Assembly (NCBI GenBank): GCA_040437565.1
Contig: JBDOQK010000016.1
Coordinates: 310,001-374,000, forward strand
DNA: 64,000 nt
Source of the DNA: Albugo candida
Taxonomy: Eukaryota
Reading direction: 5' to 3'
Shown in pieces: positions 39,554 to 42,511 of the stretch. The first letter of the stretch is position 1. Each line of letters opens with the position of its first letter. Both the position numbers and the translations under genes were made by a program. Under the pieces are notes generated by a model that saw only the letters and a program-made list of their open reading frames with translations, was not told the DNA's origin and did not search any database.

Positions 39554-42511
39554 CTACGATTCCGGTTTGTGGAGAAGCCATTTCGATAACTTTCGAATCG
39601 CGACATCGAGATTGGGGCACACCGACTGAAGGAATCCATCAATGTCGTCCCATTCCAAGACTTCCGGCATGCTATCAATAAGATATAATGCCAAATCGCC
39701 TTTAAAATCCACAAACGCTATCCGAACGTATAGTTCTGTCGGATCTCGTCCAAAACACGATCCTGGTAGAACAGCTACGCCTGTAGACTGAAGTAGACGC
39801 TCGCAAAAATCTCGATCGGTGTAGATACAGCGATTCTTCAGCGCTTTACGATGAGTCGCAAAGCTTGGAAATAAGTAGAATCCTCCTTGTGGAACCTGCA
39901 ATGTTACAGAAACTTTTTCCAATTGATAACAGCACCAGCGACAAACAAGCTGCAAAATTCGACGGCATCGTTCTTTGTACGCGTTAAGCTCGACGCAGCT
40001 GGATCACAATTGCATACTCAGGAATCATTGTTGGAAACTAATTGCTCGTCACGTACTCGATGACGAATGCCCTTCTTGCAGCATACTGAATTGGAGATGC
40101 AACGGACGTGTAAGTCTCTGATGCCATAGTCAACATGCTTCGGCGTAGCCATTGTAGGCCACTGGGGAAAATCCAAAATCCTATTCTCCAGCCGCCAGCA
40201 CCACACCACTTGCTGAGCCCACCAGAAACAACAGTCCCCTCCGGATAGAACTTTGATATCGAAGTATGCACATCGTTTGCACCAAGATGGAGTTCCGAAT
40301 AGATTTCGTCCGAAATCACCAGAATTCGGTATTTCTTCGCAACCTTAGCAATCTCCAAAAGCTGCTCATTGTTTGCTAGAATTCAAGTATTCGAACCAAT
40401 ACAACTGCATAGGTGTACCTCATTTTCCGTGTAGACACATCCTGTTGGATTCGAAGGTGAATTCAAAATAAGAATTCTGGGGGCATCTATGCAAAGGTTA
40501 GAGATCGCCAGCCTGTGATCTAATTGGAGTGATACCTGGGTCTGGAGCGCAGTGTTTTTCTAGTACTTCAGGACGCAACACCCACCTATCACTTGCATGA
40601 GTGGGTAGCCACAACATGTTCCTGTCCAAAATATTGAAAGAAAAATTTAGATGAAGAACCACTCACCGTTTGATTCTACCTTCCAGCGATACTAGCTTGT
40701 GGTGCAAAACTTGTGCAGCTTGGATTTGGTAGAAGTAAATCACCATAATAGACCATCTGCAGCACGTATAAGAGTTCCTTCGTTCCTGGTCCTATGACAA
40801 TATTTTCCGCGGTGTAATGCAAGTTCAAATTATGTGATGCCCAATTCGCTACATCTCTACAAAGTGACGGTAATCCCGCAACGGGGAGGTAGTCTCGTTG
40901 ATGAGCATTTGCTCTACAAATAATTGCTTTATCAGCCATGAACAGTTGAATGAGAATAAAGGAAAAGACCTGAGTTCGTCGACAATGCACTGAGGAACTG
41001 AGAACGGAGATTGTCCAAGTCCCAATTTGTAGATTGTAGACCCTTGTGATATCATCTCGTTACTGAGCTGATCCAGAGCGCTTCNNNNNNNNNNNNNNNN
41101 NNNNNNNNNNNNNNNNNNNNNNNNNNNNNNNNNNNNNNNNNNNNNNNNNNNNNNNNNNNNNNNNNNNNNNNNNNNNNNNNNNNNCCGCCAGCACCACACC
41201 ACTTGCTGAGCCCACCAGAAACAACAGTCCCCTCCGGATAGAACTTTGATATCGAAGTATGCACATCGTTTGCACCAAGATGGAGTTCCGAATAGATTTC
41301 GTCCGAAATCACCAGAATTCGGTATTTCTTCGCAACCTTAGCAATCTCCAAAAGCTGCTCATTGTTTGCTAGAATTCAAGTATTCGAACCAATACAACTG
41401 CATAGGTGTACCTCATTTTCCGTGTAGACACATCCTGTTGGATTCGAAGGTGAATTCAAAATAAGAATTCTGGGGGCATCTATGCAAAGGTTAGAGATCG
41501 CCAGCCTGTGATCTAATTGGAGTGATACCTGGGTCTGGAGCGCAGTGTTTTTCTAGTACTTCAGGACGCAACACCCACCTATCACTTGCATGAGTGGGTA
41601 GCCACAACATGTTCCTGTCCAAAATATTGAAAGAAAAATTTAGATGAAGAACCACTCACCGTTTGATTCTACCTTCCAGCGATACTAGCTTGTGGTGCAA
41701 AACTTGTGCAGCTTGGATTTGGTAGAAGTAAATCACCATAATAGACCATCTGCAGCACGTATAAGAGTTCCTTCGTTCCTGGTCCTATGACAATATTTTC
41801 CGCGGTGTAATGCAAGTTCAAATTATGTGATGCCCAATTCGCTACATCTCTACAAAGTGACGGTAATCCCGCAACGGGGAGGTAGTCTCGTTGATGAGCA
41901 TTTGCTCTACAAATAATTGCTTTATCAGCCATGAACAGTTGAATGAGAATAAAGGAAAAGACCTGAGTTCGTCGACAATGCACTGAGGAACTGAGAACGG
42001 AGATTGTCCAAGTCCCAATTTGTAGATTGTAGACCCTTGTGATATCATCTCGTTACTGAGCTGATCCAGAGCGCTTCCCGCTGAAGCGCATAGTATTCGT
42101 ATTTTGCAGTTGATAGCTTTGTGTGGACCTCGACATTCTACAATGCTGATGATCAGAATGCAACAACTTTTCTTGTGATTGAGCTGTATGCGAGCCTGTA
42201 TTTCCATGTTCCAACTCGCAACTGTCAAGCTGTTCTTCTGCTCTATTCCTTATGCTGTGATCGACGAGTATGGCATTCTCACATCCAGCGTGATCAGGAG
42301 CAAATTCGGGACTCGGTATGATTATCGTCTCATTTGTGTTCGTAGGTCTTTCGAGGTCTATTACACTGATTCGCGACTTTGATTTATATTTTCTTTGCAG
42401 TGTGGATTTCGGGATGCTAAATCGACGGGATGCTTCTCGAACTGAAATGCCTTCTGTCTCTATCGCAATAATTGCATCTTGCAATCGTAATGATCGAACA
42501 TCCTTCCTCAT
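39554..42511 (-). CDS. PLP-dependent aminotransferase class I/II (AspAT-like) with a putative N-terminal pipsqueak HTH exon; ~0.9 kb duplicated across the gap at 41085
   Basis: LGLGQSPFSVP, YLPVAGLPSL, GPGTKELLY, LILNSPSNPTG, VISDEIYSEL, GGLSKWCGAGGWRIG (PLP Lys), PQGGFYLF and GVAVLPGSCFG. The upstream exon carries LQDAIIAIETEGISVREASRRFSIPKSTLQRK. Confidence 0.85.

Follow-up and report, generated by a model that had tools for sequence, protein, structure and literature searches.

Does one gene of Albugo candida join a psq-type HTH to a complete PLP aminotransferase, and, if so, what might the resulting protein do? The question is raised by a locus in a 64,000-nucleotide stretch of contig JBDOQK010000016.1 (positions 310,001-374,000), the whole of which we call the window; all coordinates below are window positions. 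A first-pass annotation had read the locus as an HTH exon spliced to an aminotransferase, with an architecture like that of the MocR/GabR regulators. The spliced link has held up: RNA-type contigs from the runs X1 and X2 join both parts of this expressed gene in frame, and we consider it almost certain that the fusion is one real protein. The details of the gene model, the origin of the two domains and the likely role of the protein required a closer look at the assembly, the splice sites and the relatives of each part.

The span 39554-42511 had been taken as one continuous gene region, which overlooked a run of 100 Ns at 41085-41184 and the duplicate beside it. Positions 40192-41084 are an exact 893-bp copy of 41185-42077 (100% identity, spacing 993), so that the two copies flank the N-run, and the 40-mers that abut the gap reappear 993 positions away. 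Duplicated flanks of this kind were found at 13 of the 19 N-runs within the window. The copy at 40192-41084 is therefore a scaffolding artefact, as a result of which the 5' half of the aminotransferase is present twice in the assembled locus. Scaffold-gap duplications of this type corrupt gene models across the window.

Without the assembly duplicate, the eight exons of the gene lie on the minus strand between 42572 and 39554, and their spliced coding sequence of 1635 nt contains 0 internal stops and encodes 544 aa. Splicing was read from two contigs, one from X1 and the other from X2 (two runs of one study), each with 0 mismatches; the RNA label of runs X1-X5 is a guess made by software, and none of the runs listed is on record as RNA. 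In both contigs, six short GT/GC..AG stretches of the minus strand are missing, among them the introns on either side of the HTH exon, while a DNA-like contig of X6 holds the same stretch unspliced. Run X4 yielded only four short, unspliced contigs of low depth, probably DNA or pre-mRNA, and was left out of the evidence. The features of the locus are as follows.

42558..42572, minus strand: exon 1, ATG 42572-42570 plus 4 codons (MKLHE); no other in-frame ATG separates it from the in-frame stop upstream, RNA-contig joint 42557/42501-2
42503..42557, minus strand: intron 1, 55 nt, GT..AG, phase 0; absent from the spliced X1 and X2 contigs with 0 mismatches, retained in DNA-like X6
42196..42502, minus strand: exon 2, 307 nt, encoding the psq-type HTH and then the variable linker; internal exon between two RNA-supported joints
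42380..42484, minus strand: HTH_psq domain (PF05225 match), three predicted helices; Pfam, AF2 and fold search
42138..42195, minus strand: intron 2, 58 nt, GC..AG, phase 1, joining the HTH/linker exon to the aminotransferase; spliced out in X1 and X2
42081..42141, minus strand: the previously proposed 61-nt GT..AG intron, unused; 42081-42137 is coding (N-terminal arm), and intron 2 ends with the four bases 42138-42141
41963..42137, minus strand: exon 3, in which the aminotransferase domain starts (CRGPHKAINCK...LGLGQSPF...); X1/X2 contigs and translation
41907..41962, minus strand: intron 3, 56 nt, GT..AG; X1/X2 contigs
41672..41906, minus strand: exon 4, aminotransferase; contigs, Pfam and translation
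41614..41671, minus strand: intron 4, 58 nt, GT..AG; X1/X2 contigs
41529..41613, minus strand: exon 5, aminotransferase; contigs and translation
41480..41528, minus strand: intron 5, 49 nt, GT..AG; X1/X2 contigs
41412..41479, minus strand: exon 6, which holds NPTG; contigs, translation and motif scan
41355..41411, minus strand: intron 6, 57 nt, GT..AG; X1/X2 contigs
41185..41354, minus strand: exon 7, part 1 (DEIY, GLSKWCGAGG...), resuming at 40191 once the artefact is removed; contigs and translation
40192..41184, no strand: assembly artefact, the 100-N run 41085-41184 plus the redundant copy 40192-41084; 100% identity and gap-flush 40-mers
40057..40191, minus strand: exon 7, part 2 (end of the PLP-lysine motif, ...WRIG to ...RRAFVI); translation and orthologue alignment
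39999..40056, minus strand: intron 7, 58 nt, GT..AG, predicted by script; the junction reads RRAFVIDCVELNAYK, matching orthologues
39554..39998, minus strand: exon 8, C-terminal domain of the aminotransferase and stop codon 39556-39554; Pfam and translation

This model departs from the earlier one at both ends of the HTH exon. The 'MRK' start at 42511 lies inside the spliced intron 1; the start moves to the ATG at 42572-42570, the earliest one in frame beyond a stop, which gives an N-terminal length in agreement with the orthologues. The GT..AG pair of the 61-nt intron 42141-42081 does exist, and its use would link the two frames and leave them open, but the RNA-type contigs splice 42195-42138 instead and run through 42137-41963 without a gap, retaining 42137-42081 as exon. 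We rejected the intron 42141-42081; splicing there would take out GPHKAINCKIRILCA, codons that are conserved. The codons for CRGPHKAINCKIRILCA, lost under that intron, are conserved in 16 of 17 aligned oomycete orthologues, the exception being the P0006 model, in which the stretch is absent, and they are partly conserved in bacteria. Intron 2 (42195, 42138, 58) was also among the candidates of our intron enumeration, and its splice product retains the GP.K.INCK.R segment that is conserved in the orthologue alignment. A gene that starts at 42511 and uses the 61-nt intron, exactly as first drawn, is therefore exceedingly improbable.

The encoded protein consists of a psq-type HTH of ~40 aa, a non-conserved linker of 62 aa and a complete subgroup-I PLP aminotransferase of ~435 aa. 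An intact class I aminotransferase had been claimed from the letters alone, and this was borne out: Aminotran_1_2 (PF00155) matches four exons in the window, and NPTG, DEIY and GLSKWCGAGGWRIG are all present. The last of these, at residues 343-356, fits the class-I PLP-lysine signature pattern, written as a regular expression. PF00155 was found in 30/30 rows of an alignment of 18 oomycete and 12 bacterial sequences, in which K333, D302, Y305 and N274 (numbering of the Lagenidium protein P0003) are invariant and R476 is nearly so, with the lysine present in 30/30. With its catalytic residues intact and under such strong conservation, an active enzyme is to be expected.

Among the best 60 of 71 matches in a PDB sequence search with P0003 were AspAT, prephenate AT, kynurenine AT and similar enzymes. 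For four proteins compared with NCBIfam equivalogs, none of the 25 listed families reached its cutoff, the best being asp_aminotase_Arch with 165.5 bits vs 550; the named aminotransferase equivalogs (AspAT, DapC, tyrosine AT, GntC and others) were rejected on this basis. The enzyme domain, catalytically complete by its motifs, belongs to an AspAT-Ib-like lineage.

The reading of the upstream exon as HTH_psq was likewise upheld. The minus-strand ORF 42538-42053 holds LQDAIIAIETEGISVREASRRFSIPKSTLQRK, and residues 10-44 of the 123-aa translation of 42511-42142 match PF05225 with an E-value of 1.1e-8 and 35.1 bits, above the gathering cutoff of 20.4; the corresponding score of P0003 is 39.5 bits. 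With the HTH exon as query and E <= 1, Pfam returned HTH_psq, HTH_SB, Xre-like-HTH, HTH_23 and HTH_Tnp_ISL3. An AF2 model of a 53-aa HTH piece (pLDDT 78) predicts helices at 2-17, 21-28 and 32-48. In a Foldseek search with this model the top match was the LCoR HTH 2cob (prob 1.00, TM 0.69, E 0.083), with CENP-B 1hlv at rank 3, and no match reached E <= 0.001. In an AF2 model of P0003, the HTH (19-59) has a pLDDT of ~92 and the linker (65-114) one of ~30, and the enzyme domain is modelled with confidence.

Orthologues of the whole protein, not only of its enzyme half, were found across the oomycetes. The window protein aligns end to end with proteins of Phytophthora, Pythium, Lagenidium, Aphanomyces, Saprolegnia and others, including Lagenidium P0003 (65% identity over 532 aa, residues 11-542 vs 24-528); it also aligns with 28 further oomycete-type proteins. 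The HTH sits at the same N-terminal position in these orthologues, a point on which the fusion had depended, and N-terminus, HTH and enzyme start are collinear across the group. By hmmscan, HTH_psq is present in 18/18 oomycete rows and 0/12 bacterial rows. In a tree that covers only these two groups and no other eukaryotes, and cannot by itself show horizontal transfer, the window protein falls within a 20-row oomycete clade (SH-aLRT 100). The pairing of psq HTH and aminotransferase is common to all sampled oomycetes.

The three parts of the protein differ in how well they are kept. Mean pairwise identity among the 18 sequences is 0.55 in the HTH, 0.12 in the linker and 0.76 in the enzyme, and the linker varies in length from 29 to 120 aa. 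Eight HTH columns are invariant in the oomycete alignment, including TLQR of helix 3. Conservation of this kind indicates that both HTH and enzyme are under selection across the sampled oomycetes, and that the HTH is very probably functional.

Psq-type HTHs also occur in transposases, and a profile search with the HTH retrieved pogo/Tigger-like and DDE_1 proteins, among proteins with the architectures PF00651+PF05225, PF03184+PF05225 and PF03221+PF05225. An isolated transposon fragment would have undone the fusion, and the data speak against one. Pfam scans found no DDE_1 (PF03184) in the window exons or in the orthologues, and tblastn of the HTH against the window returned this locus only. 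On these scans of the window and the orthologues we rejected a pogo/Tigger transposase or a fragment of one. Used alone as a query for longer proteins, the HTH exon gave 0 matches at E <= 0.001 among 240 candidates, which reflects a limit of the word filter; the profile search did retrieve the orthologues. Pipsqueak, LCoR, the CENP-B N-terminus, BTB-psq (mod(mdg4)) and pogo/Tigger share the psq-type HTH with the oomycete protein but are not known to carry a metabolic enzyme. The oomycete protein has only one psq repeat and lacks a DDE domain, a BTB domain and a second HTH of CENP-B type.

Among the matches listed, the closest relatives outside the oomycetes are bacterial enzymes of ~430 aa without an HTH. 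These relatives, which make up at least 583 of 585 candidate stretches in the genome collection, show 48-54% identity over ~427 aa, and their homology starts at residues ~104-112 of the window protein, at the junction of HTH/linker and enzyme. They form a stand-alone class-I family (for example P0032 from an Acidobacteria MAG, P0069 from Alloalcanivorax and P0108 from Alkalilimnicola) in which this identity extends over the whole enzyme domain and which shares GLGQSPF, an NPTG/NPHG-type motif, DEIY and GLSKWCGAGGWR with the oomycete enzyme. Like the latter, the family reaches no NCBIfam equivalog cutoff; unlike it, the bacterial proteins have neither HTH nor linker. L036 and L025, the bacterial proteins whose N-terminal matches are longest, showed no HTH in their N-terminal extensions. 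The 80 bacterial loci revealed no conserved operon and gave no hint of a substrate or pathway, the top neighbour clusters being radical-SAM-like (10/80), acyl-CoA synthetase-like (9/80) and TRAP DctM (8/80). An oomycete ancestor probably acquired the enzyme half from this widespread bacterial family, and the acquired enzyme would then have gained the N-terminal psq HTH exon.

The alternative that two neighbouring genes, one for the HTH and one for the aminotransferase, were merged by annotators or assemblers has some footing in public data. Split models exist in several species (HTH-only P0129, P0134, P0137 and P0138; enzyme-only P0021), so a downstream start could still yield the enzyme alone, and the X1 and X2 contigs, at 10-15 kb and each spanning several genes, are no proof of a single transcript, of its ends or of its full-length phasing. 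However, the HTH exon is internal and spliced on both sides, with a 3' joint that leads in frame and with no stop into the first conserved enzyme residues, and bacterial homology begins exactly at this junction. Among the best 30 matches to an enzyme exon, 25 carry PF00155 together with PF05225, from many independent annotations, and the next 90 rows, bacterial or metagenomic, carry PF00155 only. Two merged genes are accordingly very improbable, and the single fused protein is the reading we follow. In practical terms the gene model is corrected here, and the split or truncated models of this gene are flagged in several public annotations.

To call the fused protein MocR/GabR-like is apt for its architecture only. 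MocR proteins are defined by an N-terminal GntR-family winged HTH and a C-terminal fold-type-I aminotransferase-like domain (PMC5320631). Both they and the oomycete protein have an N-terminal DNA-binding-type domain, a linker and a PLP fold-type-I aminotransferase-fold domain that is expected to dimerise, and they share the concept of linking amino-acid/PLP chemistry to DNA. The oomycete HTH is of psq rather than GntR type, and its enzyme belongs to another, catalytically complete AspAT-like lineage, which is ~50% identical to stand-alone bacterial enzymes and, unlike MocR sensors, keeps all catalytic motifs. GntR (PF00392) was absent from the Pfam scans of the HTH exon (E <= 1) and of the 18 orthologues, and the best 60 of 71 PDB sequence matches with P0003 contained no GabR/MocR entry. 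Because it has no GntR domain, the protein is not a member of MocR/GabR.

In bacteria, PutA, BirA and other trigger enzymes are active enzymes with a DNA-binding domain. With a small DNA-binding module on a competent enzyme, they offer the best functional analogy if the oomycete enzyme half is active, although they differ from it in folds, chemistry and kingdom. Type-I aminotransferases are obligate homodimers, so two HTHs on flexible tethers would be expected per dimer, an arrangement that would suit bivalent DNA binding. An active enzyme associated with DNA in this way could couple amino-acid/2-oxo-acid (or PLP) status to transcription, and would then be a convergent trigger enzyme of the kind that PutA, BirA and MocR represent.

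How far this proposal carries depends on the step considered. We lean slightly towards the combined reading, in which the fusion is real and conserved, its aminotransferase is active and its HTH, of DNA-binding type, is functional; DNA binding by the protein is slightly more plausible than its absence, and with a lone psq repeat such binding may be weak. That the protein regulates transcription in response to a metabolite is a tentative suggestion, and less likely than not. More speculative still is the full scheme, a eukaryotic, convergent MocR/PutA-type trigger enzyme in which a transferred bacterial aminotransferase and a transposon-type psq HTH form a dimeric regulator whose promoter occupancy is set by the amino-acid/2-oxo-acid/PLP state. 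If true, it would amount to a lineage-wide oomycete nitrogen/amino-acid sensor that is absent from plant and animal hosts.

Two other roles deserve weight, each of them rather unlikely in our judgement. The protein could be an active aminotransferase tethered to chromatin or the nucleus and devoid of a regulatory role, which might, for example, adjust the local supply of glutamate, 2-oxoglutarate or aspartate by making or consuming them. Its intact catalytic residues and strongly conserved enzyme domain, unlike MocR sensors, would suit such a role, and the linker, flexible in the predicted model, fits a tether; the present evidence is equally compatible with a regulator. It could also be a metabolic aminotransferase of the ordinary kind, with a psq domain that has no affinity for DNA and serves as a protein-interaction module or is marginally functional. 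The HTH is indeed single and short, its fold match is weak by E-value (0.083), some annotations omit it (P0021), and several records name the oomycete protein 'aspartate aminotransferase'. Against this, the HTH keeps its position in 18/18 full-length oomycete rows, with TLQR invariant and an identity far above that of the adjacent linker, its HTH_psq match exceeds the Pfam gathering score, and AF2 models it with high confidence. We continue to favour, if only slightly, the fusion with a functional HTH of DNA-binding type.

Both domains are already annotated in databases, and the pairing itself was found in no paper. Our literature search returned no description of a psq HTH-aminotransferase fusion, a combination that Seidl et al. 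2011 and Wang et al. 2016 could list, and the Saprolegnia parasitica genome paper (PMC3681718) has none of 'psq', 'Aminotran' and 'HTH' in its Table S9. Oomycete-specific N-terminal additions on aspartate aminotransferases do have a precedent in PsAAT3 (Wang et al. 2016, as cited in PMC6747730).

What the fusion would mean depends on the HTH. If it binds DNA, the protein would provide a direct link from enzyme to gene in oomycete nitrogen metabolism, and a regulator created by gene transfer followed by domain fusion. The extra domains of the aspartate aminotransferases that serve as precedent are reportedly a prephenate dehydratase/dehydrogenase, not an HTH. To our knowledge, fusions of a DNA-binding domain with an aminotransferase fold have been regarded as exclusively bacterial; the same logic now appears in a eukaryotic lineage from other parts, a psq HTH and a bacterial-type enzyme that is catalytically complete by its motifs. 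If the HTH does not bind DNA, the locus is still a clean example of an enzyme, probably transferred, that gained a domain across a whole lineage.

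The minus-strand ORF at 42538-42053 of the window contains LQDAIIAIETEGISVREASRRFSIPKSTLQRK, and the translation of 42511-42142 matched HTH_psq (PF05225) in Pfam with 35.1 bits, above the gathering cutoff of 20.4 (E-value 1.1e-8). GntR was absent from the Pfam matches of this translation, the weaker of which were other HTH families. Four exon-sized ORFs downstream of the HTH ORF matched Aminotran_1_2 (PF00155), and the NPTG, DEIY and SKW...GWRIG motifs were all found in the translation of the locus. The two domains proposed in the first-pass annotation, a psq-type HTH and an aminotransferase retaining these motifs, are therefore both present.

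The span assigned to this fusion, 39554-42511, is nevertheless not a faithful piece of the genome. The window holds 19 runs of exactly 100 N each (e.g. 12131-12230, 37249-37348, 41085-41184, 43325-43424 and 59501-59600). At 13 of the 19, the 40 bases directly bordering the gap occur again across it; these duplicated flanks are exact, with overlaps of 117-893 bp, meaning that contigs that overlap were joined end to end with a gap put between them. Any gene model running across such a join acquires a false tandem duplication. Since 40192-41084 equals 41185-42077 at 100% identity (distance 993), the gap at 41085-41184 has a copy of the aminotransferase 5' half on either side, a duplicate that had been overlooked. 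Contig 41185-43324 bears the HTH ORF together with the first aminotransferase exons, and the independent, DNA-like public run X6 carries all of 41185-43324 in one 43-kb contig, with four substitutions and one single-base deletion. In the coding part of 41185-42572, only 42302 and 42331 differ between the window and X6. Both lie in the linker between HTH and enzyme domain and alter the amino acid by codon reading (F>L and E>K), and no differences fall in the HTH or the enzyme 5' half. Further upstream (42807, 42868 and 42937) are two further substitutions and a one-base deletion.

We aligned four public runs to 41185-43324 for splice joints. X1 and X2 come from a single study as two samples, and their 'RNA' label is a guess by the tool; each yielded one contig, free of mismatches and with six short segments skipped, all with intron-like ends on the minus strand. 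X6 carried the unspliced form of the locus, and the X4 pieces, being short, unspliced and of low depth, were left out of the splice evidence.

Introns of the fusion gene, in window positions.
Intron 1: 42557-42503, minus strand, 55 nt, GT..AG, skipped in X1 and X2
Intron 2: 42195-42138, minus strand, 58 nt, GC..AG, skipped in X1 and X2
Intron 3: 41962-41907, minus strand, 56 nt, skipped in X1 and X2
Intron 4: 41671-41614, minus strand, 58 nt, skipped in X1 and X2
Intron 5: 41528-41480, minus strand, 49 nt, skipped in X1 and X2
Intron 6: 41411-41355, minus strand, 57 nt, skipped in X1 and X2
Intron 7 (predicted): 40056-39999, minus strand, 58 nt, GT..AG, its sole support the orthologue alignment RRAFVIDCVELNAYK

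The GC donor belongs to the domain-boundary intron, the other five RNA-supported introns being GT..AG; lengths range from 49 to 58 nt. This GC..AG intron was already among 120 frame-compatible candidates enumerated blind. Two shared letters permit other junction placements, with an identical mRNA for all. The 61-nt intron proposed earlier (42141-42081) has no corresponding joint in the X1 and X2 contigs, where 42137-41963 is an unbroken exon. At the start of the enzyme domain, orthologues show KGPRKAINCKIRMLCTSAGSALDELSNEM and bacterial homologues LNLNVRGLSRSATLAVNELSNDL; the window equivalent, CRGPHKAINCKIRILCASAGSALDQLSNEM, is encoded from 42137 downstream, in the frame that had been spliced into. 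Homology also rules out the 61-nt intron, which would remove most of this conserved stretch. When the RNA-supported joints are used, the translated product lines up with 17 orthologues in every column there, and the stretch is kept in all but one of them, the P0006 model.

Two separate genes, one for the HTH and one for the aminotransferase, are hard to reconcile with these joints, since the HTH-bearing exon (42502-42196) is internal and spliced at both ends. In favour of two genes, contigs of 10-15 kb that cover several genes cannot show transcript ends. Those of X1 (10.4 kb) and X2 (15.3 kb) extend beyond both ends of 41185-43324 and continue unspliced from the start codon upstream to 43324. 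Around the fusion gene, messages from adjacent genes seem to abut or overlap, so these contigs do not fix its mRNA 5' end. We are nearly certain that the fusion is real: this is one gene, its message is spliced across the HTH/enzyme junction, and the architecture is lineage-wide.

Joining the RNA-supported exons, removing the duplicate and adding the one predicted intron gave a corrected CDS of 1635 nt and 544 aa with no internal stop. It starts with the ATG at 42572, with no earlier in-frame ATG after the preceding in-frame stop, and the resulting N-terminus equals those of the orthologues in length by alignment. The 'MRK' start chosen earlier sits inside intron 1.

A 114-aa enzyme-exon query, restricted to longer proteins, scored 8000 candidates, and the best 120 of 7768 matches at E <= 1e-5 were examined. 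The best 30 of the 7768 were oomycete or oomycete-like (two rows unnamed), the genera represented including Phytophthora, Plasmopara, Peronospora, Bremia, Nothophytophthora, Pythium, Globisporangium, Lagenidium, Aphanomyces, Saprolegnia, Achlya and Thraustotheca. PF00155 and PF05225 occurred together in 25 of these 30 in the precomputed domain column. The remaining five are three Aphanomyces models whose sequences do contain the HTH, the C-terminal fragment P0001, and P0021, an N-terminally short model that starts MLCTAAG. Rows 31-120 of the best 120 had PF00155 only, at ~430 aa, and were bacterial where named. Using hmmscan, we found HTH_psq in 18/18 oomycete rows and 0/12 bacterial rows. Oomycete orthologues thus carry the HTH, and with no second copy found within the window, this argues against an isolated transposon fragment. 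Identity to the Lagenidium orthologue P0003 was 65% over 532 aa, HTH included, versus 48-50% over ~427 aa to bacterial proteins, whose alignment begins at window-protein residues ~104-112, the exon 2/3 junction.

In a quick IQ-TREE analysis of 52 rows and 433 columns, the window protein fell within a 20-row oomycete clade (SH-aLRT 100), on a long branch (0.35) with an unresolved basal place. Partial or over-long models (P0001, P0013, P0015, P0017-P0019, P0021, P0022, P0024 and P0027) were left out, and the bacterial-type rows were the first 32 of 415-470 aa; the tree holds two groups only, without other eukaryotes, and transfer direction cannot be read from it alone. On bacterial contigs, one genome per species, a relative was encoded at 583 of the 585 pattern matches listed (at least 583). 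The 80 retained bacterial loci spanned many phyla at 46-54% identity, and no HTH was found in the two whose N-terminal match was longest. No conservation was found in bacterial gene neighbourhoods of the enzyme relatives. From this distribution, it is reasonable to infer that the enzyme half may have been acquired horizontally.

Public models of the fusion gene are inconsistent (P0018, P0019, P0020, P0028, P0021, P0129, P0134, P0137 and P0138). Some are 1003-1145 aa long, including two with PF14817 in front that probably merge a neighbouring gene; others are enzyme-only (430 aa, P. sojae) or HTH-only (149-194 aa). These are likely annotation merges and splits, not biology.

Eight columns, helix 3 TLQR among them, were invariant between the window HTH and nine orthologues. 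A profile search from this alignment found 84 proteins at E <= 0.01, including all PF00155+PF05225 proteins, every one oomycete, and the window's own 169-aa ORF call (P0130). It also recovered the short HTH-only oomycete models P0129, P0134, P0137 and P0138, most simply split annotations of the same locus. Further matches were animal multi-psq proteins, BTB-psq mod(mdg4), DDE_1 and CENP-B-type transposase-like proteins and Pin-type recombinases. These matches confirm a bona fide psq-type HTH; they name no donor and are compatible with a pogo-type origin.

AF2 modelled the window HTH as three helices (pLDDT 78). Its best PDB match in Foldseek was the LCoR HTH 2cob (prob 1.00, TM 0.69, E 0.083), with CENP-B third and no PDB match at E <= 0.001. 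For full-length P0003, pLDDT was ~92 in the HTH (19-59) and ~30 in the disordered linker (65-114), and the enzyme domain was confident. Mean pairwise identity over 18 sequences was 0.55 in the HTH, 0.12 in the linker, which varied from 29 to 120 residues, and 0.76 in the enzyme. This pattern would be expected if both folded modules were under selection and the linker were only a tether. We consider it quite probable that the HTH is functional.

In the enzyme, GLSKWCGAGGWRIG fits the class-I aminotransferase signature. Invariant residues over 30 oomycete and bacterial rows were the PLP lysine, Asp and Tyr of DEIY and Asn of NPTG, and a C-terminal Arg was nearly invariant. No NCBIfam equivalog matched at cutoff, the best being archaeal AspAT (165.5 bits versus 550). 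The nearest solved structures were AspAT-Ib, prephenate and aromatic aminotransferases (best 4my5, E 2.4e-35). Together, these results suggest that the enzyme half is probably an active aminotransferase.

Because type-I aminotransferases occur as obligate dimers, the fusion protein would carry a pair of psq HTHs, each on a flexible tether, which could compensate for the weak binding expected from a single psq repeat. This geometry would resemble that of MocR regulators. The first-pass annotation had called the protein MocR/GabR-like, and the HTH-aminotransferase design is indeed alike, but the defining GntR domain is missing and the enzyme domain is not of MocR lineage, with GabR missing from the best 60 of 71 PDB sequence matches. 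Judged by its domains, the fusion protein falls outside the MocR/GabR family and has the design alone in common. Of the earlier reading, the fusion survives, the intron and start do not, and the interpretation is supported in part. Given the intact active site, a trigger enzyme (PutA, BirA) may be the closest functional analogy, not a catalytically dead sensor. We lean slightly towards the HTH binding DNA; metabolite-responsive control of transcription by the protein seems rather doubtful. The HTH could instead be a nuclear or chromatin tether only, or the protein a plain enzyme with a non-DNA-binding appendage.

Fusion proteins are already in public databases with both domains annotated, e.g. 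as 'HTH psq-type domain-containing protein' or 'Aspartate aminotransferase'. No description of the architecture was found in the full-text literature, a search that did not cover Seidl et al. 2011 and Wang et al. 2016 (PsAAT3). It is not listed in Table S9 of the Saprolegnia genome paper (PMC3681718).

The surroundings of the fusion gene are ordinary, tightly packed eukaryotic genes, and the ten long window ORFs that were scanned showed no transposase. Neighbouring ORFs encode a carboxyl transferase (2433-4154), RPAP1 (16671-20654), an amino-acid transporter (24703-25817), AICARFT/IMPCHase (26506-28455), a P-type ATPase (34221-36899), a myosin head (47586-50978) and a VWA protein (56357-59500). 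On the opposite strand, ~2.7 kb upstream of the fusion gene start, the plus-strand ORF at 45275-46069 carries a GH131 catalytic domain (E 2.2e-24), a plant-cell-wall-degrading enzyme type.
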